This document shows positions 4,464 through 57,639 of a stretch of DNA of 64,000 nt, piece by piece. Source of the DNA: Candidatus Woesearchaeota archaeon (GTDB lineage: Archaea; Nanobdellota; Nanobdellia; Woesearchaeales; 21-14-0-10-32-9); contig JAIPET010000004.1 of NCBI GenBank assembly GCA_021736975.1, positions 2,008 to 66,007 on the forward strand, read 5' to 3'. The position numbers and the translations under genes are program-made. Numbering within the stretch: the stretch's first letter is position 1; each line of letters opens with the position of its first letter. A model generated the notes under the pieces. It saw nothing but the letters and a program-made list of their open reading frames with translations. It was not told where the DNA came from and did no database searches.

Positions 4464-4600
4464 TGTAAATTAGGCTAATATAAAACCCTTCTTTTTGTAT
4501 TGCGAAGCAATATTATTGACTCCGTCAAAAACAAAAAACCAATATTTGAACTTGTTTTGCCATACAAAAAACAAAGAATTACAATTTAATTCACATTATA
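4464..4600. repeat. Family-3 intergenic repeat, copy 1
   Basis: TAAATTAGG...TTCTTTTTGTATT...TATTGACTCCGTCAAAAACAAAAAACCAATATTTG...GTTTTGCCATACAAAAAAC is closely similar to 47243-47410 (about 35-nt core with 2 mismatches). Confidence 0.45.
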
Positions 4601-4663
4601 AAATTTAACTCTTTCAATTTTGCTTTAAATACTCAAATAAATTAATATTAACACACAATTAAA

Positions 4664-6424: not shown

Positions 6425-7054
6425 ATGCAAATAACACCAACCGTATTTTCAAAAAATAAAAAAGAATTTGAAAACAGATTCAAAAAAATATCAAAACTAT
6501 CAAGAGAAATACAAATAGACATAATGGATGGAAAATTTGTAAAAACAAAATCAATAAATATTTCTGACTTACCAAATTTTTTATATTCAGGAAAAATAAT
6601 AGAAGCGCACCTAATGGTAAAAAACCCAGAAAAATATATTGAACCACTAAGAAAAAAATTTGTTGGACGAATAATATTCCATTACGAAACAACAAAAACA
6701 AAAACCCCTGAAATAATAGAAAACATACACAGACACGGAATGCACGCAGTAATGGCAATAAACCCAGAAACAAAACTAGAAAAAATACAACCATATACAC
6801 ACCTAATACACAGAGTCCTAATAATGGGAGTCAAACCAGGAAAAGAAAAACAAAAACTACTAATATCAACATACAAAAAAATCAAAGAACTAAAACAAAA
6901 TAATCTACATCTAAAAATACAAATAGATGGCGGCGTAAATAAAGAAACAGCAAAAAAATTAAAATACGCAGGCGCAGACATATTAAACACAGGAAGCTAC
7001 GTTACAAACGCAAAAGATCCGGAAAAAGCTCTAAAAGAATTAAAAAACATATAG
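6425..7054 (+). CDS. rpe: ribulose-phosphate 3-epimerase
   Basis: IDIMDGKFV and AHLMV motifs of the Rpe (TIM-barrel) family. 209 aa. Confidence 0.6.
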   Translation: MQITPTVFSKNKKEFENRFKKISKLSREIQIDIMDGKFVKTKSINISDLPNFLYSGKIIEAHLMVKNPEKYIEPLRKKFVGRIIFHYETTKTKTPEIIENIHRHGMHAVMAINPETKLEKIQPYTHLIHRVLIMGVKPGKEKQKLLISTYKKIKELKQNNLHLKIQIDGGVNKETAKKLKYAGADILNTGSYVTNAKDPEKALKELKNI

Positions 7055-7062
7055 AGAGCTTT

Positions 7063-7201
7063 TTCCAACATTTCTGTTTTTCAAACAAAAATCATCCAAA
7101 AAAAGCAATAGAAGAACTAAAAAATCTATAACTCACTTTTTCTAACATTTTCATTTTACAAACAAAAATCATCCAGAAAAAGCAATAGAAGAACTAAAAA
7201 A
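7063..7201. repeat. Tandem direct repeat, two copies of about 65 bp, in a convergent intergenic region
   Basis: TTTTC[C/T]AACATTT...CAAACAAAAATCATCCA[A/G]AAAAAGCAATAGAAGAACTAAAAAA occurs at 7063-7128 and 7136-7201, between rpe stop and the stop of the minus-strand gene at 7202. Confidence 0.5.
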
Positions 7202-11358: not shown

Positions 11359-14211
11359 ATGAAAAATCTAATAATAAAAGGCGCTCGCGAACATAACTTA
11401 AAAAATATATCTGTAGAATTACCAAGAGATAAACTAATAGTAATAACAGGCCTGTCAGGATCAGGAAAAAGCAGCCTGGCATTTGACACAATATACGCAG
11501 AAGGACAAAGAAGATACGTAGAATCATTATCAGCATACGCAAGGCAATTCTTAGGACTAATGAACAAACCAGACGTAGACTCAATAGAAGGACTATCGCC
11601 AGCCATAAGCATAGAACAAAAAACAACAAGCAAAAACCCAAGAAGCACAGTTGGAACAGTCACAGAAATATATGATTACTTAAGACTACTATATGCAAGA
11701 ATAGGAATTCCACACTGCCCAGAACACAAAATAGCAATAGAATCACAAAGCCCACAAAAAATAGCGCAAATAATAAAAGACGCAAACCAAAAGAAATCAA
11801 AAAATATTTCCGGGGTTGCTGAAAATAAATCTTCCAGCAACAAAGAACAAATAACAATACTTGCACCAATAATTTCACAAAAAAAAGGAACACATGAAAA
11901 AATAATAGAAGACCTAAACAAAGAAGGATACGCAAGAGCAAGAGTAAATAAAGAAATAATAAAAACAGACACAACGCCAAAACTAGAAAGATACAAAAAA
12001 CACGACATACAAGCAGTAATAGATAGACTAAATATTTCTGATGAACAAAGACTAACAGAAGCAATAGAAGCAGCCTTAATAAAAGGCGAAGGCAACGTAA
12101 TAATACTAGATGAAAAAGAAAAAGAAACAACATACTCCTCAAGTCATGCATGCACAAAATGCGGCCTAAGCTTTCCAGAACTACAACCAAGAATGTTCTC
12201 ATTTAACAGCCCCTTTGGAGCCTGCGAAACATGCCACGGCCTAGGCATAAAAATGGAATTTGACGAAGACCTAATACTACCAAATAAAGACCTAACAATA
12301 GCAGACGGAGCAATAGCAATATACAGAAACGCAGTAGACGGCTGGAGAGGACAATACATAGCAGCAGTAGCAAAACACCACGAATTTGACATATTCACAC
12401 CAATAAAAAACCTAAGTCAAAAAAACATAGACATAATACTATATGGCTCAACACAAAAAATGAAATTTAACATGAGCATGAAAGGCGGAGAAGCGAACTG
12501 GTCAAGCCACGGAACCTGGGAAGGCATAATTCCCCAATCAGAAAGACTATACCACCAAACAGAATCAGACTACAAACGACGCGAACTAGAAAAATTCATG
12601 AAAATAACACCCTGTCAAACCTGCAAAGGAAAACGACTAAACAAAAAAACACTATCTGTCACAATCCACAACAAATCAATAATAGACATAACAAACCTAT
12701 CAATAAACAAAGCACTAGAATTCTTCACAAAAACAAAATTCACAGAAAAAGAAACAAAAATAGCAAAACAAATACTAAAAGAAATAAACGAAAGACTAAC
12801 ATTCCTAGACAAAGTAGGACTAAACTATTTAACACTATCAAGAAACGCAGGAACCCTATCAGGCGGCGAAGCACAAAGAATACGCCTTGCCACACAAATA
12901 GGATCAAACCTAATGGGCGTACTATACGTACTTGACGAACCATCAATCGGACTACACCAAAAAGACAACCAAAAACTAATAGACACACTACACAAACTTC
13001 GAGACATAGGAAACACACTAATCGTAGTAGAACACGACGAAGACACAATAAGAAAAGCAGACTACGTCCTAGACATAGGCCCAGGCGCAGGAATACACGG
13101 CGGAGAAATAACATCCAAAGGAACACCAAAACAAAGAGAAAAAGACCCAAAAAGCATAACAGGACAATACCTATCAGGAAAACTAAAAATAAAAACCCCA
13201 AAAAAAAGAAGACAACCAAAAGAATACATAACAATGCTAGGCTGTGAAGAACACAACCTAAAAAACATAAACGTAGACATACCCCTTGGAATCCTAACAG
13301 CAATCACAGGAGTATCAGGCTCGGGAAAATCAACACTAATCTATGAAACACTATACAAAGCAATGATGAAAAAACTGCACGGCTCAAAATTAAGCGTGGG
13401 AATGCACAACGAAATAAAAAACACAGAGAAAATAGACAAAGTAATCGTAATAGACCAATCACCAATAGGAAAAACACCTAGATCCAATCCTGCAACATAC
13501 ACAAAAGTATTTGACGAAATAAGAAACATATACGCAGGAACAAAAGAAGCAAAACTACGAGGATACAAACCAGGAAGATTCTCCTTTAACGTAAAAGGAG
13601 GACGATGCGAAAACTGTCAAGGAGACGGCACAATAAAAATAGAAATGAACTTTTTACCCGACGTATATATTGAATGTGAAGAGTGCAAAGGAAAAAGATA
13701 CAATAACGAAACACTAGACGTAAGATACAAAGGAAAAACAATCGCGCAAGTCCTAGAAATGAGCGTAGAAGAAGCATTAAAATTATTTGAAAATATTACG
13801 TCAATCAGAAATAAATTAGAAACATTAAATCAAGTAGGACTAGAATACATAAAACTAGGACAAGGATCCACAACACTATCAGGCGGCGAAGCGCAAAGAA
13901 TTAAACTAACAAGAGAACTAAGCAAAAAAGCAACAGGAAAAACAATGTATCTACTTGACGAACCAACAACCGGCCTGCATTTTCACGATGTAAAAAAATT
14001 AATAAAAGTACTAGACTCACTAGTAGAAAAAGGAAACTCAATGATCGTAATAGAACATAATTTAGACGTAATAAAATCGGCAGACCACATAATAGATATA
14101 GGCCCAGAAGGCGGAGACAAAGGAGGATACATCGTAGCAGAAGGAACACCAGAACAAGTTGCAAAAAATAAAAAAAGTTATACTGGAGAATTCTTAAAAA
14201 AAGTATTGTGA
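11359..14211 (+). CDS. uvrA: excinuclease ABC subunit A
   Basis: 950 aa. Two ABC modules ([14 protein letters not shown]; [10 protein letters not shown]), Zn-finger Cys pairs, LSGGEAQR signatures. Confidence 0.95.
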
Positions 14212-29319: not shown

Positions 29320-31125
29320 ATGGCAGATACAAACTTACAAGATTATGATGAAAAAACGCAAAATCAAACACAAGAAAGTACAATAAAAGAACCCATAAAA
29401 GAACCCGTTAAACAAAACGAACCTAATAAAAAAGAAATTCCAACCAATTCAAGTGATTCAAAAGCACACGAAATGGCAAAAAGCCAAAGAGAAATTTCCA
29501 TTGCCGAATTCTTTGAAAAAAACAGACACCTACTAGGTTTTGACAATAAAAGAAAAGCACTACTAACAACAATAAAAGAAGCAGTAGACAACTCCCTTGA
29601 CGCATGCGAAGAAGCAGACATACTACCAGAAATAATAGTAGAAATACACGAAGTAGGAAATGACAAATACAGAGTAATAATAGAAGATAATGGACCAGGA
29701 ATAATAAAAGCGCAAATACCAAAAATATTTGCAAAACTACTATACGGATCAAAATTTCATAAACTAAAAATGCAAAGAGGACAACAAGGAATAGGAATTT
29801 CTGCAGCAGTAATGTACGCACAACTAACAACAGGAAAACCAGCAAAAATAATATCAAAAATCCACAAAGACGAACCAGCACACTACTACGAACTAAAAAT
29901 AGATACAGCAACAAACAAACCCGACATAGTAAAAGACGACATGAAAGAATGGTACAAAGACCACGGAACGAGAATAGAAATAGATTTAGAAGCAAGCTAC
30001 AATAAAGGAAACCAATCAGTAGACGAATACATAAGAGAAACCGCAGTAATAAACCCGCACGTAACACTAATATATCAACCGCCAAAAGGCGAACAACTAA
30101 TGCTTGTTCGAGCAACAGAGCAAAAACCAAAACAAGCGCAAGAAATCAAACCACACCCATACGGAGTAGAACTAGGAATGCTCATAAAAATGCTAAATGT
30201 AACAGAAGCAAAAACAATAAAACAATTCCTAAAAGAAGACTTCTCAAGAGTAGGAGATAAAGCAGCAGAAGAAATACTAGAAAACTCAAAACTCCTAAGC
30301 AAAACAAAAACAAAAAACATCTCAAGAGACATGGCAGAACAACTAATGGAAGGAATCAAAAAAACAAAACTAATGATGCCACCAACAGACTGCATAGTAC
30401 CCTTAGGCGAAGAAATGCTAGAAAAAGGAATAAAAAAAGAAATCAACGCAGAATTCTACACATCAGTATCAAGACCACCCGCAGTATATAGAGGAAACCC
30501 ATTTGCCATCGAAGTAGCAATAGCATACGGCGGAGACCAACCATCAGACAAAGCAATAAACGTAATGAGATTCGCAAACAGAGTACCACTACTATACCAA
30601 CAAGGAGCATGCGCAACACAAGAAAGCATAACACAAACAAACTGGAAAAGCTACGGAATAAACCAAACAGGAAGCAACATGCCAACAGGACCAATAACAG
30701 TAGTAATACACATAGCATCAGTATGGGTGCCATTCACAAGCGAAGCAAAAGAAGCAATAGCGCATTACCCAGAAATCATAAAAGAAATGAAACTAGCAAT
30801 ACAAGAAGCAGGAAGAAACCTAGCAAAATACGTAAAGAAAAAGAAAAGAGTCAAAGACGAACTCAAAAAAAGATCATACATAGAAACATACATACCACAC
30901 ATCGCAGAAGCACTAAGAGACTTAACAGAATGCTCTGCTACCGAAGAAGAAATAATAAAAGAAAACCTAACAGAACTACTAGAACAACAAAGAGGAAAAG
31001 TAGACTCACTAGACTTTGACCCAACAAAAAACGAAGAATACGATGAAGACTTCGCAAAAATAGGAAGAGAAAAAGATGAAGAAGACGAAGAAGACGATCA
31101 AGAAGAAAACGGTGAAGAAAAATGA
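29320..31125 (+). CDS. top6B: DNA topoisomerase VI subunit B
   Basis: GHKL/Bergerat ATPase motifs ([18 protein letters not shown]), transducer domain, acidic C-terminal tail. Confidence 0.9.
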
Positions 31126-32204
31126 CTAAAACACTAGAAAAAATAAAACAAACCGCAAAAAAACTATTCACAAACATCAAACTAAAAGAAAAAGCAGAAA
31201 TGGAATCACCAGTAAGATCCCTAAACAACGTAATATACAACAAAAAAGACGGATATTTTGAACTAAAAGGAATGATGAAAAAAAGAACACTAACCGCAAA
31301 CACAGTAAAAACATTCGCACAAACACTAAAAATGATGTCACTATCAAAAGAACTAATAAACTCAGAAGACATCGCAACAAAAAGAGAAGCATACTACGTA
31401 AGCAAAAACTGGGGAGAAGCCAGATTCAAAGAACAACCAGAAAGCGACGCAGTAATGGACGACATCGAAGCAACATTCTCATGCAACAGAGAACAACTAG
31501 GATTCATAGCAGACGAACACGGCGGAAGCCTAGCAGGCGCACTAACAGTAATAGACAAAGACTCCACAACAAAAAAAGAAATAAAAATAGACTGCACAAA
31601 ATTTGGATCAGGAAGTTATTCAATACCAAGTGACGTAGAACATTTAAAATTTGAAACAAAAGCAAAATTTGTACTAGCAATAGAAACACAAGGTATGTTT
31701 GAACGATTAAATAAACACCAATACTGGAAAAGCGCAAACTGCATAATAATATCAATGAGCGGAGTACCAAGCAGAAGCTGTCGAAGATTCATAAGAAAAC
31801 TAACAGATGAAACAAAAATTCCTTGCTACGTATTCACAGACGGAGATCCATACGGAATGATGAATATATACAGAACACTAAAAGTAGGATCAGGAAACGC
31901 AGCACACATAAACGAATACTTTTGCGTACCACACGCACACTTCATAGGAATAACCCCACAAGACATAAAAGACTACAAACTACCAACACACCCATTAAAA
32001 GAAGTAGACATAAAAAGAGCAAAAGACGCAATCAAAAATGATCCATTCGTAAAAGACCACAAAGAATGGCAAAACGCACTAAAAGAAATGATACAAGGAA
32101 AAGTCAGAGCAGAACAACAAGCACTCGCAAAGCATGGATTAAATTTTGTAATATCAGACTACCTACCAGAAAAAATGAAGAATGAAAAAAGCTGGCTACC
32201 ATAA
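31122..32204 (+). CDS. top6A: DNA topoisomerase VI subunit A (Spo11 homologue)
   Basis: Start overlaps top6B stop. Toprim DGDPYG. Spo11-like 5Y-CAP region. Confidence 0.9.
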
Positions 32205-33919: not shown

Positions 33920-34210
33920 TCATACTTTGAAGTTCTCTGGAACATAACAAAAAATTGAAAGAATAAAATCATAAACATTTTTTCTATGTTCAAATTTTAA
34001 AAGATACAAAATATCTTTTTCTTCATCATAAGAATAAATTAATCTAAAAGGCTTTACATACAAACTTCTTTCGTTATGCTTATATCTTAATGGCTTTCCG
34101 ATATAAGGATTTTGAGATATTTTTTGAACTTGTTTATTCACCTTAATTTTTAAAAATGGATCTAATCTTTTTGTACTTTTTTTGAATGCTTCCCCCGCAA
34201 TAGTTTTCAT
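33920..34210 (-). CDS. RelE/ParE-family toxin
   Basis: GKPLRYKHNERSLYVKPFRLIYSYDEEKDILYLLKFEHRKNVY. Confidence 0.6.
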   Translation of the reverse strand: MKTIAGEAFKKSTKRLDPFLKIKVNKQVQKISQNPYIGKPLRYKHNERSLYVKPFRLIYSYDEEKDILYLLKFEHRKNVYDFILSIFCYVPENFKV

Positions 34211-34211
34211 A

Positions 34212-34463
34212 TCACCAAGAGTTCATTTCTTTTAAAAAGTCTTTAGAGTCGAATTCCGAATACTTTCCGGCACGAATATCTTCCCAAATTTTATCAAGTT
34301 CTTCCATTTCTTTGAGTTCTTGTTTTGTATAACCTTCTACTTTTTTTAGTACAATCATATCTTTTTTTCGCATAACAGAAAAAGCAGTTCCAGAATTAAG
34401 ATCTTTTCTTGCTTCTTTTGGAATCACAATTTGACCTTTTGAACTAAGTTTCGTTATTAACAT
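34212..34463 (-). CDS. AbrB/MazE/SpoVT-type antitoxin
   Basis: SSKGQIVIPKEARKDL swapped-hairpin motif. Immediately upstream of the toxin. Confidence 0.6.
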   Translation of the reverse strand: MLITKLSSKGQIVIPKEARKDLNSGTAFSVMRKKDMIVLKKVEGYTKQELKEMEELDKIWEDIRAGKYSEFDSKDFLKEMNSW

Positions 34464-34483: not shown

Positions 34484-34611
34484 ATATTTATAAATGTTTA
34501 TATTACTTTTTTGGAACATATTTATTTTCTATATTGCAATTAATTACATCACTATTTATTAGTAGTAAAATATATAAATGTTGAAATTTATACATAGAAT
34601 ATACATAAAAA

Positions 34612-34824
34612 ATGGAAAAAACAAACTCATTTAGCCTAACAAAAAAAATAGCCAAGCATGGAAACCAATCCATAATAGTAATACCTAGAATTCTTGAAAA
34701 AAAACTCAAACCAAAAACAATAGTTCAACTAAAAATAGACATCATAGAAGAAGTAGAAGAAATAGAGGAGGAAAACAGAAACAAAGTATCTGATCCTTCC
34801 AAAACAAGTTTGGAGGAGAACTAA
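34612..34824 (+). CDS. small AbrB/SpoVT-like DNA-binding protein
   Basis: KHGNQSIIVIPRILEKKL motif plus acidic tail. Ends 1 nt before the kinase-like gene. Confidence 0.45.
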   Translation: MEKTNSFSLTKKIAKHGNQSIIVIPRILEKKLKPKTIVQLKIDIIEEVEEIEEENRNKVSDPSKTSLEEN

Positions 34825-34825
34825 A

Positions 34826-36943
34826 ATGTTAAATCTAAAAAACACAACTATTGGAAATTTCCTTCTGGACAATAACCACCCTAATAAAAGAAACAGAGAA
34901 TCAAGAATAAAAAAAATATCAAGAAACATGGACGAAGTAAGAAAAAGACAAGAAACAGTAGAAAAAACACTTTCACCACAATATAGAAGCGTAGTATATA
35001 ATCCATCAGACGGACCAAGAATAAATTTTAGAATAATATGGGGCCCTAATGACGAAGAAAGAATTGTAAAAACAGATGGAACACCAATAGGACCAAGACA
35101 AACAAGACACATATCAAGAGGATGCACAACTAATAACGAAGCACTAAAACTTGGAAAAATAGATGAGCCGGAACTATTTCATATAAATCCCATGATAGAT
35201 TATTATGAAGGCACTGAAGACAATAAAATAATTTCTATGTCCATAGAAAAGTTCAGAAAAAAATACAAAACATTAGACCAACAAATAATAGATAACGGAC
35301 CTTTTGACATTAAAGACTTTGAACAAACATTCGAAAAAATACTAAGATCTGGAAAATATTATATGAATAAATTTGGAATCTTGCACAGAGATCCGAAAGC
35401 ATCAAATATTTTATTTAGAAAAAACGGTTCAATAGATATATGGTTAACAGATTGGGCAAACGCAGGAACAATAAACAACAACAAATACAAAATAATGCCA
35501 ACATCAGGAGGACATTTCATCTTAGATCCAATAAGTTCAGGAATATTTTCAGAACGCCAATCAACATATAACATACAATCAGAATTATACGCTTTCGGAA
35601 CAGAAGGAACAGACATGCTTTTAGGAGATTATGATTTCGAGTTTGATCCAGATAAAGAAATTGGAATATACATCCCTACAGGAGAGTCAATGCTAAACGA
35701 AAAAGGTAAACTAGACAAAGAAAAATTCTCAAAACAACTATGGAACTCGTTAAAAGAAATTAAAGGAGAACCAAAAAAATATAGAGAACTATTATACAGA
35801 TTAAGAACTCCTTATGAAAATGAAAGATTTGAAAGCATAAATGAAGTTGTAAATGAATTTGAAAAAATAAAATCTAAAAAAAGTTTTGTCCAAAAAGTTA
35901 AAAAACATAAAAACACAATAATCATAAGCTCTTTAATATTAACAGGAGGATCAGGCATAGGATTGCAAACATATCAACAACTAAACAAAGAAATCCTAGA
36001 AGCCAAAAAATATCCGGTCAACACAGCATGGAACGGTGCAGATCTAACAATAAACAACAGCTTGTTTGACATAAAAATAAGTTCTAGTGTATTTAATGGA
36101 GGAAAAAACTACAGCAAATATCCGGGAGATAAATTCCTCGTCGCTAAACCAGGAGAAACAATTCATGCATACATAGAAGCAAACGGAAAACCATTCTCAA
36201 AAGAAAACTATAATTCTTTATGGCTTCCTGCAAAAGCATACATAGAAGGATACGAAATTTCTAATGAATTTAACTTTTATGTTGACGATCCCGATAAAGC
36301 TTATTGTCCGGACGATATGTATGGATATCCATACGGAGATATCAATATGAAACTTCCTGAAGATATACATGAAGGAATATCAAAAATGATTATAGAAGTC
36401 TACAGTCCAAATCCAAAAATAAACAAACGCAATTCAAAAGATGCGATGAATAAAATAAATCTTCAAAGCTCAGGACGTGTATTGCTTAGGAAAAAAATAC
36501 CTATAATCGTAGGAGATCCAAAATTTAATGTTACAGTAAATAACCTTTACATAGGTTCATATACCGAATATATTTCGTTTGGTCCATTTACTAGACTCAA
36601 TGATTATGTTGATGAACTAAGTAAAGACATTAATTACATCATTAGCTTAACAGGTACTGATTTCAAAGAACTATGGACTAATGAAGGCAACATATATAAC
36701 TCGAAAAGTGGATATATAAAAATACCTGATGGACAAAAAAATCAAGAAGGCATTCTAAAAATACTATACCAAGATAAAAATAATCAAAAAATAACAGGTT
36801 TTGATTTCGTTCCCTTAATATACAAAGATACTACATATGCAAATGGATACAGATTTGGATGTTGGGACTTTAATGACATAGACACAAATTATTTCAAAAC
36901 AGTTACCAAGTTAGGTCAAGAAGCACTGGACTTAAACAAGTAA
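34826..36943 (+). CDS. large protein with eukaryotic-like protein-kinase fold (atypical)
   Basis: SD GGAGGAG upstream. Catalytic-loop-like GILHRDPKASNILF and IWLTDWANAG (DFG replaced by DWA). 705 aa with unknown C-terminal half. Confidence 0.5.
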   Translation: MLNLKNTTIGNFLLDNNHPNKRNRESRIKKISRNMDEVRKRQETVEKTLSPQYRSVVYNPSDGPRINFRIIWGPNDEERIVKTDGTPIGPRQTRHISRGCTTNNEALKLGKIDEPELFHINPMIDYYEGTEDNKIISMSIEKFRKKYKTLDQQIIDNGPFDIKDFEQTFEKILRSGKYYMNKFGILHRDPKASNILFRKNGSIDIWLTDWANAGTINNNKYKIMPTSGGHFILDPISSGIFSERQSTYNIQSELYAFGTEGTDMLLGDYDFEFDPDKEIGIYIPTGESMLNEKGKLDKEKFSKQLWNSLKEIKGEPKKYRELLYRLRTPYENERFESINEVVNEFEKIKSKKSFVQKVKKHKNTIIISSLILTGGSGIGLQTYQQLNKEILEAKKYPVNTAWNGADLTINNSLFDIKISSSVFNGGKNYSKYPGDKFLVAKPGETIHAYIEANGKPFSKENYNSLWLPAKAYIEGYEISNEFNFYVDDPDKAYCPDDMYGYPYGDINMKLPEDIHEGISKMIIEVYSPNPKINKRNSKDAMNKINLQSSGRVLLRKKIPIIVGDPKFNVTVNNLYIGSYTEYISFGPFTRLNDYVDELSKDINYIISLTGTDFKELWTNEGNIYNSKSGYIKIPDGQKNQEGILKILYQDKNNQKITGFDFVPLIYKDTTYANGYRFGCWDFNDIDTNYFKTVTKLGQEALDLNK

Positions 36944-37951: not shown

Positions 37952-39046
37952 ATGATTTGGCTACAAACAATCAAAGACACACTATCCTTAATAACACAAC
38001 AACCCGACACGACAGCACTAGAAGCAAAAAGAATACAAGCAGAACAAGATTTTTTACTAAACAAACAAACAAAACAAGAACAAATAGAAACAAAAATACA
38101 AAACTACAACAACATAATACAAGAACCCCAAAAAAATGGATTGAAATTAAACAGGTTTAATGTAACATCTGGAAACTATCACCTTACAATAGATCAAAAT
38201 CCAAATTTAGAAAATAAAATACAAAATGATGTAATAATTTTTGGAAAAAACAAAGTTTACAAAGATTTATTTGTAAACATAATAACAAACGGAGATATAG
38301 AAGAAGAAATAACAGGATACTTACACACAGGAATAAACACAAAAATAGGAAATACAAAAATAAAAATACATGGAGGACATGGACTTAGCAACAAACTCCC
38401 AAAAACATTCATAGGAGGAGAAATAAGCGAAGAAAATAATTACCATCTTGAATCAGTATTCTTTAGTCCAGAGCCAATCCTATCAAATGGACAAAAAGCA
38501 TTTTTCATAATGACTGCAAAACAAATAGGACAAAAAGATTACATAAGCATAGGAAACAATGATGGAACCTGGAAATCAATCTACGGACACATAAATGATA
38601 AAATAGGAACCTACCTAAGCACTGAATTTGAGCCGAATAAAAAAGAATTTTCATTTTCAACAACAACAGCATGGAGTAAACCTGCAAAAAATGCATATTC
38701 TTGGAAAGGAATGAATTTTGTAAGTCAAATACTAATGATACAACCATTTTCATTCCCTTATCTTTCAAGCCACACAAATAAAGGAGACGACATAACACGC
38801 ATAGAAGGAAAAATATCAGAAAATAATAAAGAATTTACAGTGATGCAAGGTAAAAATCTAGGACTTATGAAAATAGGAATAGGACTCACATATCAGAAAA
38901 AAAATGGAGAAGAAAAATACGGAGTAGTCGGAAACATCTACAAAGAATTCGATATAACAAAAGAAATGACAGGAACCATAGACCTAAGATACAACTCAGC
39001 AAAAAAAACACTTAATCTATGGTTAAACACAAATATTGAGATGTAA
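37952..39046 (+). CDS. hypothetical beta-rich protein
   Basis: 364 aa. No signal peptide recognised. Confidence 0.45.
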   Translation: MIWLQTIKDTLSLITQQPDTTALEAKRIQAEQDFLLNKQTKQEQIETKIQNYNNIIQEPQKNGLKLNRFNVTSGNYHLTIDQNPNLENKIQNDVIIFGKNKVYKDLFVNIITNGDIEEEITGYLHTGINTKIGNTKIKIHGGHGLSNKLPKTFIGGEISEENNYHLESVFFSPEPILSNGQKAFFIMTAKQIGQKDYISIGNNDGTWKSIYGHINDKIGTYLSTEFEPNKKEFSFSTTTAWSKPAKNAYSWKGMNFVSQILMIQPFSFPYLSSHTNKGDDITRIEGKISENNKEFTVMQGKNLGLMKIGIGLTYQKKNGEEKYGVVGNIYKEFDITKEMTGTIDLRYNSAKKTLNLWLNTNIEM

Positions 39047-51482: not shown

Positions 51483-52229
51483 TTGACTAATACTAGCGAT
51501 AGCTATGTGGAAAATGATGAAAAAAACATACTCGAATTAGTTCAAACTTTAAAACAACAAACAAACAAACCAGAAATAAAACAAATATATGAAATACTAG
51601 AAAAAGCGAAAAAAACAGAAGAAATAGCAAAAAAAACAAACCTAAGCAAAAGAAGAATACAACAAATAATAAAAAAACAAACAGGAAAAACACCGAATCA
51701 AATAAGACAAGAAATAATACACTTAAAACAAAAAAATCTAAAACAAACCAAAAAAATATCTAGCTTAAAACAAATAAGAACAAAAAAATACATTTCAGAA
51801 AGTGAAATAGAAAACATTCTAAACAAAACAAAAAATAAAACAAACCTAACAATAATTCAAACAATTCTAGAAACAGGCTGCACACTAGACGAAATAACAA
51901 ACATAAAAAAAACAGATTTATTTGACAACCAACTAAACATAAATGGACGAATAATAACAATAACAAAACAACTAAAAAAAAACCTGAACAAAATACAAAC
52001 AAAATCAAAATACATATTCTCATCAAGACAATCAGAACAAATAAGCAAAAAAAGAATTTTTCAAATTATAAAGAAAGAAACAAATCAAAACGCACAAATT
52101 CTAAGAAATACCTGCATCGTAAACTTACTTCAAAAAGGAATTTCTAAAGAAAAAATAGTGAAAAAAACAGGCATCAAAAATCTGAGCCTGAGTACATACG
52201 GCATAGGAGAAAAAATAAACCATGACTAG
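51483..52229 (+). CDS. Lys-rich HTH protein with C-terminal degenerate tyrosine-recombinase-like domain
   Basis: Non-ATG start (TTG 51483 or GTG 51507). HTH-like TEEIAKKTNLSKRRIQQI. C-terminus ILETGCTLDEI...ILRNT...LSLSTYGI aligns by eye to recombinase box I/II but lacks most catalytic residues. Confidence 0.45.
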   Translation: MTNTSDSYVENDEKNILELVQTLKQQTNKPEIKQIYEILEKAKKTEEIAKKTNLSKRRIQQIIKKQTGKTPNQIRQEIIHLKQKNLKQTKKISSLKQIRTKKYISESEIENILNKTKNKTNLTIIQTILETGCTLDEITNIKKTDLFDNQLNINGRIITITKQLKKNLNKIQTKSKYIFSSRQSEQISKKRIFQIIKKETNQNAQILRNTCIVNLLQKGISKEKIVKKTGIKNLSLSTYGIGEKINHD

Positions 52230-55200
52230 ATTAAAGAATAAACCGGAAAGTGTACTCTTTAAAATAGTTTTAATTACGATTATGCTAATATTACTAACAT
52301 CCAATGCAACCGCTGATTGGTGGAATCCTGCATGGGAAGAAAGGATAAATCTAAGTATGAACTACACAGGAAATAACCAAACAAATTTCCCAATAGCTGT
52401 GCATCTAAATCAAACCATAATAAACTACAATAAAACAATGGCAAATGGACAAGACATAAGAATGATAGATTGTCAAACAAACCAATCACTAAACTACGAA
52501 ATAGAACTATGGAACAACACAGGAGACTCACTAATATGGGTAAACATACCAACAATAAGTCCAAATAGCTGCATATGGCTATACTACAATAACTCACAAG
52601 CAACAACAAATCAAAGCGCGGCAAATACTTGGAACAGCAATTACGACATAGTATATCACATGACAAATACAGGAATTGACGTATCAGGAAACAACATAAA
52701 CTACAACGGACTAATTGGATCCCCACAAACAACAAAAGAATTTTTAGGATACGGACAAACATTTGACGGCACTAATGCATGGAACATGAAAGACGTATCA
52801 TACTGGGAAATAGAATGGTATGTACGAGCACATGAAGTCGTATTTAAAACTACAAATGACATAACAACAAAACAAACACTACTCGGAGAAGGAGGGGGAA
52901 CAAACGGAGTACTAATGTACATAGACTCAGGAAACTTATACGCAAGATGGTGGAGCGAAACAGCACCAGCCTGGGCAGGAGATCAAATACTCGCGCCAAT
53001 AGAAGAAAATAAAACATATTATGCAATAATGACATTTGCAGAAGATACAGCACCAAACAATTACTCCCTAATACTAAATGGAGTAACGATAGATTCAAGA
53101 GTAACACCTGATGAAATGGACCCCCACACAGGAGATGGAGGCATAGCATACACAGGAACAAATACAAAAGATTACCATGATGGAAATAGTGGAGGAAATT
53201 ACTTTAAAGGAACCATATATGAATTTAGAACAACAAACTCAATATATGACGAAGACTGGTACGCACTACAAAACAAATCAATATTTAACAATTTAATAAA
53301 TTACAACATAGAATCAGGACAAGCAAACTTTAACACAATAAACATAAGCGACACAACATTAAATTATAACCAAACCATAAACATAACCGCGAACATAACA
53401 AGCACAGAGCAAATAAATAAAACATGGCTAGAAATAATAATGCCAGACACCACCAAAATAACAAAATTCCTAACAAAAATATCTCAAGATACATATGAAC
53501 TAATAATACAACTAACAAACCCAGGAATCTACACACTAGAATTATTTGCAAATAATTCACAAGGAAATAATTACTCAACAACATTACAAAATATTGAATT
53601 ATACAACAACATAAAAATAACAAACATCTCAACAACAAACACAAGCATAGACCTAGGAAACAGCGTAAAAATAAATTGCACAATAATAAATAACGATACG
53701 AACTCACCACTAGAAAATTATACAGTTACATATACAAGTAATCAAACAGGATTCTTAGAAAATAAAACAACAAACAATAATGGCATAGCCCAATATACAT
53801 TCATAGACAATACTCTAGGAATAGAAGAAATAACTTGCCATATTAACAATTCACAAGGAAAATATCTAAATACAATAAATCCAAGCAGCATGCAAACAAC
53901 AATAATAACAATACAACCATCAGACTTGACAATATATAATGTGACGCATACAGAATTAGAAGGAATATATCAAAACATAAAAATAAATACAAATATAAAA
54001 ACAGCATTTAATATAACTTATGCAAAAATAAACATAACATTGCCAAATAATGAAATAAAAACAATAAATATGACGCACATAACAGGAGAACTATACGAAG
54101 CAAATTATAACGATACAAAAATAACAGGAAATTATAAATTTAAAATATATGCACAAGACGAAGAACCAAGCACAGACATAAGTCCGGAATTTTCATTTGA
54201 CATAGAAGTTAATTCAAACATAGAAATATATACTGATAAAGAAGCATATGCAAAAAACGAAATAATATTATTATCCTCAAACCCATTAAACTGGTGGGAT
54301 ATAAATTGGAATAATAGAAAAGAAATCACACTAACAGAAAACTCAAATGAAAACCTATACGAATACCAAGTGCCAATAAATGTAAATACGCAAGAACTAA
54401 TAACGCAAGGAAAATTAAGTTCAGATTGCTCAGATATAAGAATGATAAGCATAGATAATGAAGAATTAGATTTCTTTTACGAAGAATACGGACCAAATAA
54501 ATGCAACACAACGCAAACTACAATTTGGACAAAAATGCCAATAATGCTAGCAAATGAAGAAACAACAATATACATATATTATAACAACATAGGTATAGAA
54601 AAAACAAGCAACATATCAAACACATTTAGCTACAATGCGCCAAGAACCATAGGCTATGTACTAAGCGATGTATTAGCCGCTCAAAGTTTATCAGTAATAA
54701 GTTTAGAAGATGATAACGAAGTGCAAGTAAATGCAACAACAAAACAACTAAATAAACAAAACACAACAACATTTCCTGCGAGCTCAATAAACACTCAAAT
54801 AAAAGCTAAAAAAGCAGTACACATAACAAGTCAAGGAGATGGAACTGACATTATAAGTCCAATAAGTCATGCAGGAACAAACTTTTACTATAGATCCGAC
54901 AGATATACAAACAGATTTGCCATGATATCTCCATTTGGAAATGCAAATGTAACAATATATTCATCAGGAACAAAAGTATGGAATGGAATAATAAATGAAA
55001 ATGGATCCGTAATAAATCAAGACATAGTAGATGGAAACACAGTAAAAATAAATTCTACACTCCCTATATTAGTCCAACATATAAGTGATAGCGGAAGCGC
55101 AGATACAGATTCACAACTATTCTACCCTGCAACAACAGACCCACTATACGGCGTGCCAACAAATTATTTACAAATAGGATCCGGTGCAAATGGAGCATAC

Positions 55201-57639
55201 ACAATATTTGCAATAAGTGATGGAACAACAGGAAGCGCGAGCATGACAAATAATCAAAATTATGAATCCGCATCATTAGGAACACAAGGAACTGCACCTG
55301 CATACAAACTAACATCAAATAAACCAATAGGAGCAAATAGTCAAGCAGATTCAGATGGAGTAGAAACAAACACGTTTTGGCCATACAAAGAACTAGGATA
55401 CACCTTTGGAGCAAATGAAATAGTGCAATACATAGCAATAGCTGCACCAGAACCAAACACAACCTGCACAGTATATAACTCTGCAGGAACACAAGTAGAC
55501 CAAAAAACAGGAGGACAAAGAACAGATATAAATAAAATAATATTTGGACTCGTAACAACAGGAGATCACACATGGCAAAATGCAGGATGGCTAATGGAAT
55601 GTAATAAACCAGTATACGCACACTACGAAAAAGAATCAGGCGCATCAAGCGAACCAACAGATGAAACACAACTAATGAGCCACAAACAAATAAGACAATA
55701 TATATACCCCGAACCAACATACACAATCAATACAGAAAAATCCCCTATAATAACAGGACTGCTAAATAATACAGGCGAAACAAACATAACAGGATATTTA
55801 ATTTTAACAATAGAAAAATATGAAAATGAAACTTGGAACACAATATACACCGTATTAAATAACAGTCAAAGCCAAACAAAAACAACACTAGAACCAACAC
55901 AAACAATAGATATTGCAAGCTACTGGAATAGCCAAAATGGATGGAACTCCACAGAAAATCAAGGAACAAACTTTAGAGCCGCGGCATACCTAGTAAACTT
56001 AGATCAAAAAATATTAACAAACCAAAATACATCTCAAATATTAGCAACCCATAATTTCAAACTTGACAAAGATCCGCCAATAATAACACTAATATCGCCA
56101 AATAATAAAACAGGAGATAATGATGGAATATTCCAAATAAAATACTCTGTGAGCGACAATAGCGAAATAAATTTATGCGAAATATATCTGAACTCAGGAT
56201 TATACAGTTCCAGAAACACAATAACTAAAGATTCAACAATAGTAAAAAACACAAATCTAAATCCTGGAAAATACTCATGGTTTGTAAGTTGCATTGACGA
56301 AGCAGAAAACATAGGATACAGCGAAACAAGAAGTATAACTGTATTAAAAACAACAAATTATGACGGAGAAACAACAGATTTAACAAATGCAGATATAACA
56401 AACATACCTAATTTTAAAATCCACAAATCAGGTATTGGAAAAATAATATTCCAAGAAAATGTAGACTTAAGCCAAGGAGGCGACTTAAACAATCTAATAC
56501 AAATACAAAATAATAAAATAACAATAAATACCAATTCATTCCCACAACTAAACAAATCCGCGACACTAACACTATATGATTTAAACTTGCAAAACCCAAT
56601 AATATTAAGAGATGGGATTGCTTGTGATGATTGCACAATAAATACTTATGCGTCAAATAATTTAGAATTCGCAGTACCTCATTTCACTTCGTACTCTGCT
56701 ACAGAAAATTCAGAATTAATAATTTGGGATGATACAGATACAAAAAGAAAAACAGAAAATGAAAAAATATATTTTTATGCAAATTACACAAACAGAACAA
56801 GCAGTCAACCAATAACAGGAATAATATGCACAATAAATGTTAACGGAACATCAGATTCAATGACTTACAATGCAGGAACATACACATATAACAAAACATT
56901 TACACAAGCAAATATATACAACTACACAATTAACTGTGATGGATCACCTCAAGGCTATTCAGAATTAAATGCGACAGATTATGCTAGCATAAATGCTATG
57001 AATGGCCCACTAGGTGCAAATGTAACAACAATAAACTCAGAAAGATATAATATAACAACAACCACAACCCAAATATTGTCCCAAGCAGCAAATGTTACAA
57101 AACTAACCATAAATGCGAGCGCAGTAACAAGTTCATGGCAAGGATACTTCGGAAATATCACAGGAAAACTAAAACTTGAAAATTCAAACGGAGAAACATT
57201 TTATGATTGGAATCTAATAAATCCAAGTGGAGAAATATATGCAACAAGAGCATTTGATGTAAACTTTGCAACAATAAATTGTGCAGACATAACAGACATA
57301 ACAAATGAAGAAAATTTCTTAAATCAAGATCCAAGTAATAGCGACTCAGTAACAAATACATACCATAAAAATAACCATCCCGAATTTTATGTAGGACAAA
57401 AACAAATATTGCAAAATGCTTGCAAAAGTACAAATATAAAAATAAACAATCAAACACAAGAAGTAAACTCGCACCAAATACTATTAAGCGATGCAGCAAA
57501 TAACATAATTTATACATCAACAATAAACACGACAGCCGCATTTAATAACAACACATTTGATTTCCAATTAATAGTCGGAGAACCGGGAAAATATGATCAA
57601 ACAACAACCCCATATTATTTCTTCATAGAAATAAATTAA
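52222..57639 (+). CDS. giant (1805 aa) Asn/Thr-rich secreted cell-surface protein with internal domain duplication and LamG/ConA-like region
   Basis: Signal peptide. Repeated module DWWNPAWEERINL...DIRMID...IWV.IP...YYNN and NWWDINWNNRKEITL...DIRMIS...IWTKMP...YYNN (DUF2341-like). Very many N-x-S/T sequons. Start overlaps the upstream gene by 8 nt. Confidence 0.8.
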   Translation: MTRLKNKPESVLFKIVLITIMLILLTSNATADWWNPAWEERINLSMNYTGNNQTNFPIAVHLNQTIINYNKTMANGQDIRMIDCQTNQSLNYEIELWNNTGDSLIWVNIPTISPNSCIWLYYNNSQATTNQSAANTWNSNYDIVYHMTNTGIDVSGNNINYNGLIGSPQTTKEFLGYGQTFDGTNAWNMKDVSYWEIEWYVRAHEVVFKTTNDITTKQTLLGEGGGTNGVLMYIDSGNLYARWWSETAPAWAGDQILAPIEENKTYYAIMTFAEDTAPNNYSLILNGVTIDSRVTPDEMDPHTGDGGIAYTGTNTKDYHDGNSGGNYFKGTIYEFRTTNSIYDEDWYALQNKSIFNNLINYNIESGQANFNTINISDTTLNYNQTINITANITSTEQINKTWLEIIMPDTTKITKFLTKISQDTYELIIQLTNPGIYTLELFANNSQGNNYSTTLQNIELYNNIKITNISTTNTSIDLGNSVKINCTIINNDTNSPLENYTVTYTSNQTGFLENKTTNNNGIAQYTFIDNTLGIEEITCHINNSQGKYLNTINPSSMQTTIITIQPSDLTIYNVTHTELEGIYQNIKINTNIKTAFNITYAKINITLPNNEIKTINMTHITGELYEANYNDTKITGNYKFKIYAQDEEPSTDISPEFSFDIEVNSNIEIYTDKEAYAKNEIILLSSNPLNWWDINWNNRKEITLTENSNENLYEYQVPINVNTQELITQGKLSSDCSDIRMISIDNEELDFFYEEYGPNKCNTTQTTIWTKMPIMLANEETTIYIYYNNIGIEKTSNISNTFSYNAPRTIGYVLSDVLAAQSLSVISLEDDNEVQVNATTKQLNKQNTTTFPASSINTQIKAKKAVHITSQGDGTDIISPISHAGTNFYYRSDRYTNRFAMISPFGNANVTIYSSGTKVWNGIINENGSVINQDIVDGNTVKINSTLPILVQHISDSGSADTDSQLFYPATTDPLYGVPTNYLQIGSGANGAYTIFAISDGTTGSASMTNNQNYESASLGTQGTAPAYKLTSNKPIGANSQADSDGVETNTFWPYKELGYTFGANEIVQYIAIAAPEPNTTCTVYNSAGTQVDQKTGGQRTDINKIIFGLVTTGDHTWQNAGWLMECNKPVYAHYEKESGASSEPTDETQLMSHKQIRQYIYPEPTYTINTEKSPIITGLLNNTGETNITGYLILTIEKYENETWNTIYTVLNNSQSQTKTTLEPTQTIDIASYWNSQNGWNSTENQGTNFRAAAYLVNLDQKILTNQNTSQILATHNFKLDKDPPIITLISPNNKTGDNDGIFQIKYSVSDNSEINLCEIYLNSGLYSSRNTITKDSTIVKNTNLNPGKYSWFVSCIDEAENIGYSETRSITVLKTTNYDGETTDLTNADITNIPNFKIHKSGIGKIIFQENVDLSQGGDLNNLIQIQNNKITINTNSFPQLNKSATLTLYDLNLQNPIILRDGIACDDCTINTYASNNLEFAVPHFTSYSATENSELIIWDDTDTKRKTENEKIYFYANYTNRTSSQPITGIICTINVNGTSDSMTYNAGTYTYNKTFTQANIYNYTINCDGSPQGYSELNATDYASINAMNGPLGANVTTINSERYNITTTTTQILSQAANVTKLTINASAVTSSWQGYFGNITGKLKLENSNGETFYDWNLINPSGEIYATRAFDVNFATINCADITDITNEENFLNQDPSNSDSVTNTYHKNNHPEFYVGQKQILQNACKSTNIKINNQTQEVNSHQILLSDAANNIIYTSTINTTAAFNNNTFDFQLIVGEPGKYDQTTTPYYFFIEIN

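Follow-up and report, generated by a model that had tools for sequence, protein, structure and literature searches.

In Bacillus subtilis, the regulator AbrB is phosphorylated by the Hanks kinases YabT, PrkC, and PrkD, and its DNA binding is thereby inhibited (PMC4837961). In the archaellum regulatory network of Sulfolobus, the Hanks-type kinases ArnC and ArnD control regulators in a lineage without two-component systems (PMC5300886, PMC5007285), and Nanoarchaeota have been reported to lack two-component systems as well (PMC5007285). On the regulator side, TK2245 of Thermococcus kodakarensis, annotated as a transcription regulator of SpoVT/AbrB-plus-PhoU architecture, was found associated with the chromosome (PMC7325993), and the PhoU-like proteins of Pyrococcus furiosus are counted as a transcription-factor family (PMC6316755).

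How DPANN archaea, with their small genomes and frequent dependence on a host, sense their surroundings is almost wholly unexplored. Here we describe a locus in a 64-kb, AT-rich stretch of DNA (about 29% G+C; referred to as the window) from contig JAIPET010000004.1 of a Candidatus Woesearchaeota archaeon. The locus consists of a small open reading frame (ORF) encoding a protein of 70 amino acids (aa), a kinase gene encoding 705 aa, and a convergent gene encoding a 301-aa regulator, which we call the AbrB/PhoU gene. This triad is conserved in Woesearchaeota and Pacearchaeota genomes. Kinases of this class, regulators of the AbrB/PhoU architecture, and signaling from kinase to AbrB are each already known, and NCBI already names the larger product a serine/threonine-protein kinase; what is new is the conserved combination of kinase and AbrB/PhoU regulator with the small ORF and an operator-like dyad in front of it. 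On balance, we lean toward the view that the locus is an autoregulated three-gene transmembrane kinase signaling module of Woesearchaeota/Pacearchaeota-type (DPANN) archaea.

Judged from its amino acid sequence, the 705-aa protein is a genuine Hanks-type Ser/Thr kinase, as an earlier note on this DNA, made from its letters, had suspected. The window protein matched the Pfam profile Pkinase (PF00069) at 2.6e-8, a narrow pass (34 bits against a gathering threshold of 31.7) that covers the C-lobe, and all 36 aligned relatives matched the same profile, the best at 3.4e-26. In a comparison with the profile of the family, StkP (3.6e-28), Staphylococcus aureus Stk1 (4EQM; 2e-26), and PknB (1e-21) were matched over profile positions 18 to 321. 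The family was gathered by an exhaustive HMMER search, which yielded 275 cluster representatives at E ≤ 0.001, 98 of them at E ≤ 1e-30, and the 36-sequence alignment was drawn from it; word-indexed homologue searches with the kinase, as a single sequence or a profile, returned only the kinase itself or generic kinases. Most relatives are 650 to 790 aa long and align over the full length with 25 to 37% identity.

Every catalytic residue is present in the window kinase (K82, E105, H187-R188-D189, K191, N194, and D209), as are the further landmarks T226, D234-P235, and E253. The catalytic-loop motif GILHRDPKASNILF was found at residues 184 to 197 and the activation-segment-like IWLTDWANAG at residues 205 to 214, both as the earlier note had read them; DWA, in the place of DFG at D209, is the D-[FWL]-A-N-A form that characterizes the family. 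Of the catalytic Lys and Asp residues, whose conservation the note had suggested checking, D189 and D209, together with H187, R188, and N194, are invariant across the 36 kinases, D234-P235 and E253 are nearly invariant, and the β3 Lys is mostly conserved. This Lys had been called not obvious, but K82 (RIVK82TD) fills the position in alignment with VAVK of StkP. The glycine-rich loop is indeed hard to see, because the window sequence SDG63PRINF has one Gly and departs from GxGxxG; such a degenerate loop is not disqualifying for the fold, and the family consensus GGTR aligns with GRGGMADV of StkP, the stretch GGTR...IKVDK spanning both the Gly loop and VAVK of the latter. SELYAFGTEG is present at residues 252 to 261, although its proposed likeness to the APE region was mistaken: SELYAFG aligns to kinase subdomain IX (D-x-W-S-x-G), and the APE equivalent is D234-P235. 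Thus, with every catalytic residue in place, the protein is less atypical than had been thought; its catalytic core appears intact, and phosphotransferase activity is predicted.

Downstream of the catalytic domain, a single hydrophobic segment is preceded by a Lys-rich stretch, and a hydrophobic segment occupies the same position in 20 of the 22 kinases that come after the small ORF. Because basic residues precede the segment, the kinase side would be cytoplasmic. The last 322 residues gave a confident all-beta AlphaFold2 (AF2) model, with a predicted local distance difference test score (pLDDT) of 85.5 and a predicted template modeling score of 0.86, for which Foldseek returned generic beta-sandwich matches alone (RbmA, factor XIII barrels, and contactin FN domains; E of about 5e-5). 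No Pfam match was found in the C-terminal half among the 36 relatives, and no PDB sequence match was found for the C-terminal domain. The layout, an N-terminal kinase followed by one membrane segment and a C-terminal beta-sandwich, suggests a receptor-type kinase, with the beta-sandwich presumably outside the cell.

The convergent gene was correctly described in the earlier note as another AbrB-domain gene. Its 3' end overlaps that of the kinase gene by 12 nucleotides (nt), and its product matched the Pfam profile MazE_antitoxin at 1.3e-5 (25.5 bits against a gathering threshold of 24.7). The N termini of all 21 relatives of this protein matched the same profile (best, 4.2e-10), PhoU (PF01895) was matched by 6 of the 21 (best, 2.2e-5), and no PDB sequence match was found for the 301-aa protein. 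Of 30 pairs of kinase and AbrB/PhoU genes, 25 share 4 to 90 nt at their 3' ends, implying that the ends of the two transcripts are antisense to each other. Examples of this junction are positions 36932-36943 of the window, 7029-7082 of locus L003, and 6462-6551 of locus L087.

The arrangement in other genomes was read from related loci, collected via an alignment of the small protein. On the kinase side, eight loci with DNA were available (the window, L002, L003, L005, L007, L008, L089, and L090), and all eight contain the small ORF, the kinase gene, and the convergent AbrB/PhoU gene. The small ORF lies directly upstream of the kinase gene in seven of them, one gene standing between the two in L089. 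In these loci, the small ORF encodes 47 to 64 aa, and the convergent genes, which encode 291 to 301 aa, belong to one family. In relatives, the small ORF and the kinase ORF overlap by 4 to 14 nt; in the window they are separated by 1 nt, and a GGAGGA Shine-Dalgarno sequence precedes the kinase gene, which bears out the translational coupling proposed earlier. The flanking genes vary from locus to locus (S8e, TFIIB, LSM, EF-2, seryl-tRNA synthetase, and others). The pairing of the kinase gene with the small ORF and with the convergent AbrB-domain gene, on which the earlier note had staked its reading, is thus kept in other genomes. No kinase fused to the small protein or to an AbrB domain was found in the collected kinase set.

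Seen from the small ORF, the linkage is looser. Among 81 copies in 80 reference loci, a Hanks kinase follows directly in 29 and within 3.5 kb in 5, none is present in 38 for which at least 2.5 kb downstream was seen, and the contig is too short to tell in 9. A Hanks kinase thus follows directly or within 3.5 kb in 34 of the 72 informative copies. The AbrB/PhoU gene abuts the kinase gene in about 20 of the 26 complete cases on this side; it tracks the kinases and not the small ORF, and it is also found downstream of some APH-like genes. Other partners of the small ORF are AAA_5/MoxR-like ATPases (eight: L032, L042, L050, L053, L058-L060, and L079), APH-like proteins of about 760 aa with an SLT domain and one membrane segment (six: L015, L018, L019, L027, L028, and L055), alpha/beta-hydrolases (three: L014, L036, and L041), and AlaE-like membrane proteins (three: L037, L071, and L077). 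These unrelated partners are translationally coupled to one near-identical protein of about 47 aa. We also considered the small ORF as a marker of membrane proteins, and this was ruled out, since the AAA_5 and hydrolase partners are without a hydrophobic segment.

Several variations of the operon were noted. An AlaE-like membrane protein gene, a gene for a protein of about 150 aa, or both may stand between the small ORF and the kinase gene, forming an extended operon (L071, 2643-3608; L089, 459-1781); L037 and L077 may share it, with the AbrB/PhoU gene about 2 kb further on. In one lineage, a low-molecular-weight phosphatase (LMWPc) gene lies immediately upstream of the small ORF (L005, 4281-4667; L006, 284-670), and this phosphatase is a possible counterpart to the kinase. 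In L003, a RelA/SpoT-family gene (11924-12082; HD_4, RelA_SpoT, TGS, and ACT), unusual for an archaeon, lies a few kilobases from the module among archaeal housekeeping genes.

The small protein, of 70 aa in the window and 47 to 56 aa in most relatives, has the core TKKIAKHGxQxIxVxPRxLExxLxPxT. Relatives consist of a conserved core of about 40 aa and a short acidic tail, and the window copy bears an extra acidic tail. With 47 to 67% identity across the first loci sampled, the small protein is far better conserved than the kinase, and the codon-position entropies of 89 copies (0.68/0.28/1.50) imply that the small ORF encodes a real protein under purifying selection. T10 is invariant and T36 nearly so. 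A pattern search confirmed 273 copies in GTDB species-representative genomes, nearly all of the carriers being metagenome-assembled genomes (MAGs) labeled Woesearchaeota, Pacearchaeota, or Nanoarchaeota. Several third-party-annotation (TPA)-assembled MAGs carry the label "uncultured Methanosarcinales archaeon" (L016-L019, L024, L044, L062, L077, L082, and L085); in view of the other carriers, these are probably taxonomic mislabels. Some genomes have two or more small ORFs, such as CAZWNN01 (L010 and L022) and JAGVWS01 (L025 and L052), and L088 has two (2729-2887 and 4474-4650), 1.6 kb apart, in tandem modules. All 120 database clusters of the protein are named "hypothetical," and none has a Pfam domain.

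The earlier note assigned the 70-aa protein to the AbrB/SpoVT class. For the window copy itself this did not stand at the level of profiles, since no Pfam or NCBIfam match at E ≤ 1 and no PDB match was found; weak pointers in the same direction came from relatives, from hhalign, and from Foldseek. MazE_antitoxin (PF04014) was matched by 4 of 40 relatives at E ≥ 0.0047, and 3 of 50 relatives matched ChpS (E of about 0.005) and 1 of 50 matched MazE, against 6 of 50 with equally weak matches to the G-domain of TypA. The alignment by hhalign with the AbrB/MazE class was in register (P = 0.0032; 9.9% probability by that program). The AF2 monomer model (pLDDT 87 to 90 over residues 11 to 40) gave three Foldseek matches, all of them cradle-loop barrels (8JVQ, 8JVR, and MazE 1MVF) and all nonsignificant (E = 2.7 to 9.7), of which 8JVQ and 8JVR are dimeric RIFT-fold proteins. 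A link to RIFT barrels via TypA was rejected as chance similarity, since these matches fall in the GTPase G-domain (profile positions 102-148). On these weak pointers, we consider it somewhat more likely than not that the small protein has an AbrB/MazE-like (cradle-loop barrel) fold, of which it would possibly form one half.

Upstream of the small ORF, we found a sharply defined dyad. Upstream regions of the small ORF often contain a box resembling the transcription factor B recognition element (BRE) and TATA, AAAGNTTTAWAWA, followed by two 8-mers 3 nt apart, each being TATACATA or its complement TATGTATA. The window dyad, TATACATAGAATATACATA, is the sole match in 64 kb, against 0.01 expected, and a TATA-like AAAATATATAAAT stretch (about 34567-34579) lies about 20 nt upstream of it. 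In 737 kb of related loci, 39 strict dyads were found, and every one lies upstream of a small ORF and on its coding strand. Of these, 32 are 36 to 110 nt from the conserved small-ORF motif; the other 7 are 569 to 1,227 nt off, and one ORF of 60 aa or more lies in between on the same strand, implying that these dyads stand before operons whose second gene is the small ORF. The distance from TATA start to dyad start has its mode at 22 to 25 nt, so that the dyad would cover the point where transcription is expected to start, which is where archaeal repressors usually sit. Each 8-mer is near-palindromic, and the centers are 11 bp apart, so that both would lie on one face of the double helix.

Among kinase-class copies of the small ORF, 21 of 38 carry the dyad; of 8 AAA_5-class copies, none does. 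Before the AbrB/PhoU gene the dyad is rare, and as much as a single 8-mer was seen in 3 of 36 cases. Since the small protein is encoded by the sole gene that every operon with a dyad has in common, it is the most parsimonious candidate for the factor that binds there. A second element, the palindrome YHACT-N4-7-AGTDR, lies immediately before the BRE/TATA box in small-ORF operons (49 sites, with 3.1 expected; in the window at about 34552-34564, ACTATTTATTAGT) and in 17 of 36 AbrB/PhoU-gene promoters; we do not claim it as specific to the module, because 27 of 74 AT-rich control upstream regions carry it too. A scan for sigma-70 promoters and terminators was uninformative for this archaeal DNA.

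The domain identities, the catalytic residues, the gene linkage, and the specificity and placement of the dyad are the observations on which our proposal of a kinase signaling module is built. In such a module, the beta-sandwich domain outside the cell would receive a surface or ligand cue, and the kinase would autophosphorylate and then phosphorylate the AbrB/PhoU regulator, the small protein, or both, altering their DNA binding. Autorepression of the small-ORF operon, for which the small protein is the likeliest agent, would act through the dyad as operator, and the module as a whole may act as a one-step functional substitute for a two-component system. A more far-reaching version, which we put forward tentatively and consider rather unlikely, is that the protein of about 47 aa is a new minimal regulator that defines a lineage-specific regulon: heading many operons, it would bind TATRYATA-N3-TATRYATA over the transcription start and be phospho-switched, for example at T10 or T36, by the co-encoded receptor kinases. 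With the AbrB/PhoU regulator, it would then make up an undescribed "kinase plus AbrB-type" counterpart of two-component systems, possibly reporting host contact.

Several points weigh against the signaling module. The membrane topology, the substrates, and the dyad-binding protein are read from gene linkage and domain content, and the loci were chosen around the small ORF, which inflates the linkage of anything nearby. More than half of the informative small ORFs (38 of 72) head operons without a Hanks kinase. In the wider kinase family the catalytic-loop Lys varies, and the β3 Lys varies in about 5 of the 36 aligned sequences, so that some members may be pseudokinases; the window kinase has the degenerate Gly-rich loop described above, and its hydrophobic segment is weak (Kyte-Doolittle maximum of 1.28). 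Furthermore, the window copy of the 301-aa protein gave no PhoU match in Pfam, and the AbrB/MazE fold of the small protein is weakly supported, which makes its role in DNA binding uncertain.

The rival that survives best, though we regard it as improbable, is that the protein is an envelope or cell-division kinase like PknB and StkP, whose substrates are encoded elsewhere and whose expression alone is controlled by the flanking regulators. Its best sequence relatives, StkP, Stk1, and PknB, do share the order of kinase, membrane segment, and ectodomain, and control at the level of transcription alone would be consistent with both the dyad and the AbrB/PhoU gene. However, the family has no PASTA repeats or wall-binding domain: NF033483 reached 14.3 bits (cutoff, 450), within the kinase domain alone, no PASTA repeats were found after the membrane segment, and the C-terminal domain is an Ig/FnIII-like tandem of generic type. 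Genes for division or the envelope do not recur consistently near the module, and the 3' overlap of kinase and regulator genes is a tighter linkage than simple expression control would lead us to expect.

A second possibility, to which we give little credence, is a toxin-antitoxin-like or defense module in which a small AbrB-like antitoxin or repressor neutralizes a kinase "toxin," as in HipBA or kinase-based abortive infection, and swaps effectors. The coupling of a small upstream gene to a larger effector gene is of this kind, as is the occurrence of one small protein before enzymes as diverse as kinases, AAA_5 ATPases, APH-like proteins, and hydrolases, and the kinase gave weak matches to the PD-T4-6 and MkoA kinase models of PADLOC (2.6e-7 to 1e-4). 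These matches, however, span the generic kinase domain alone and are weaker than those to StkP and PknB, and the neighborhood holds no other PADLOC match. Besides, a membrane-anchored kinase of about 700 aa with a large beta-sandwich is unlike the cytoplasmic toxins, the small protein, with its short core and acidic tail, is without a toxin-binding extension, and the module has a third conserved gene, which toxin-antitoxin pairs are without. A canonical type II toxin-antitoxin pair does lie next door, as the earlier note had reported: the ParE and AbrB genes at 33920-34463 are genuine (Pfam, 6e-8; TIGR01439, 4e-9), are ordered antitoxin then toxin with a 1-nt gap, and diverge from the small-ORF operon, with which they share a 148-nt intergenic region. 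The ParE toxin, however, was found in none of the approximately 88 related loci and its AbrB antitoxin in one. The pair is not conserved with the module, stands outside it, and is coincidental to this genome. The description of the surroundings as a toxin-antitoxin-rich islet did not hold, nor did that of a toxin-like module, since the kinase appears membrane anchored and receptor type and stands amid housekeeping genes; the alternative wording, an uncharacterized regulatory module, remains fair, given the conserved pairing with the small protein and the AbrB gene.

We likewise doubt strongly that the linkage is without function, with the small ORF a generic operon-leading autoregulator, the 301-aa protein a PhoU-type phosphate regulator, and the kinase unrelated and kept by compaction, because kinase and AbrB/PhoU genes stay adjacent while their surroundings change (in 8 of 8 kinase-side and most small-ORF-side loci, the kinases being 25 to 37% identical) and no pst or pho transporter genes were seen next to the module, although the small ORF does head many non-kinase operons, DPANN genomes are compact with common overlaps, and PhoU-family proteins are usually tied to phosphate control.

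The features of the locus are collected in Table 1. On rereading of the ORFs, the coordinates given earlier for the small ORF, the 705-aa ORF, and their neighbors were all correct. At NCBI, the 705-aa protein has an identical, truncated counterpart named [quoted passage not shown] (assembly GCA_021734925.1), and the 70-aa protein is listed as a "hypothetical protein" of Candidatus Woesearchaeota archaeon.

Table 1. Features of the kinase locus and its immediate neighbors (window coordinates)
Feature	Position	Strand	Basis and remarks
ParE/RelE-like toxin, 96 aa	33920..34210	-	Pfam ParE-like_toxin, 6e-8
AbrB-type antitoxin, 83 aa	34212..34463	-	TIGR01439, 4e-9
Operator-like dyad	34589..34607	+	TATACATA-GAA-TATACATA, i.e., TATRYATA-N3-TATRYATA; 4 nt before small-ORF ATG
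Small conserved protein, 70 aa	34612..34824	+	ORF, conservation
GGAGGA ribosome-binding site for kinase gene	34812..34817	+	Read from sequence; inside small-ORF 3' end
Kinase ORF, 705 aa	34826..36943	+	ORF; 1-nt gap after small ORF
Hanks-type Ser/Thr kinase catalytic domain	34958..35875	+	Residues ~45-350; Pfam PF00069, family profile
Single hydrophobic segment, predicted membrane anchor	35912..35968	+	Residues 363-381, TIIISSLILTGGSGIGLQT; Kyte-Doolittle
C-terminal all-beta domain, predicted extracytoplasmic	35975..36940	+	Tandem Ig/FnIII-like sandwiches plus terminal helix; AF2
Convergent regulator, 301 aa	36932..37837	-	N-terminal SpoVT/AbrB/MazE DNA-binding domain; putative helical PhoU-like C-terminal region

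Archaeal housekeeping genes surround the module in the window, including those for a RIO kinase, a KH-domain protein, a DEAD-box helicase, and a TrmB regulator; the ORF pair at 29320-32204 would, from its translations, encode topoisomerase VI B and A. Divergent from the AbrB/PhoU gene is a gene for a 364-aa protein without a family match (37952-39046, forward strand), weak homologues of which occupy the same position in L030 (3e-10) and L009 (6e-5); it may be an occasional fourth neighbor. Elsewhere in the window lies an ORF of 1,805 aa (52222-57639, forward strand).

The module offers defined parts for the study of sensing in these archaea, namely, a receptor-like kinase, two candidate regulators, and a sharply defined candidate operator, and it gives a context to a "hypothetical" small protein encoded in at least 273 places in species-representative genomes. 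In the literature on Woesearchaeota or DPANN archaea, kinases, and AbrB, we found no paper describing such a module, and the main review of archaeal protein phosphorylation makes no mention of AbrB.

Compared with described systems, the locus shares parts with several. Type II toxin-antitoxin systems with AbrB/MazE antitoxins resemble it in that a small, possibly AbrB/MazE-like protein is encoded first, coupled to partners of varied families, whereas the partner here is a 705-aa predicted membrane receptor kinase instead of a small cytoplasmic toxin, the toxin-binding tail is absent, and a third conserved gene and a conserved candidate operator are present. The 301-aa family has the domain order of TK2245-type SpoVT/AbrB-plus-PhoU regulators (AbrB/MazE in 21 of 21 and PhoU-like in 6 of 21 relatives), although the window copy is below any PhoU threshold and no kinase linkage is described for those regulators in the papers searched. 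The ArnC and ArnD kinases of Sulfolobus are likewise archaeal and of the Hanks type and control regulators, as we infer for the kinase here; their substrates, however, are the FHA/vWA proteins ArnA and ArnB and not AbrB, the lineage is different, and no small ORF or dyad operator is described there.

The closest matches to the kinase itself are the PASTA kinases StkP, PknB, and Stk1, which gave the best profile matches (E = 3.6e-28 to 1e-21) over the whole catalytic domain and have the same order of N-terminal kinase, one membrane segment, and C-terminal noncytoplasmic domain that is predicted here. Unlike them, the family described here is found in archaeal hosts, has a tandem Ig/FnIII-like beta-sandwich without a Pfam match in place of PASTA repeats, carries D-W/F-A-N-A for DFG, and has a degenerate Gly-rich loop, and the PASTA kinases are not known to have the conserved partnership with a small ORF and an AbrB/PhoU gene. 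For the proposed output, in which a Hanks kinase would act on an AbrB-fold regulator, the phosphorylation of B. subtilis AbrB is a mechanistic precedent. To our knowledge, the kinase and abrB genes of B. subtilis do not form a conserved gene pair, whereas the regulator at this locus would have a C-terminal region resembling PhoU, and its gene is convergent with that of the kinase.

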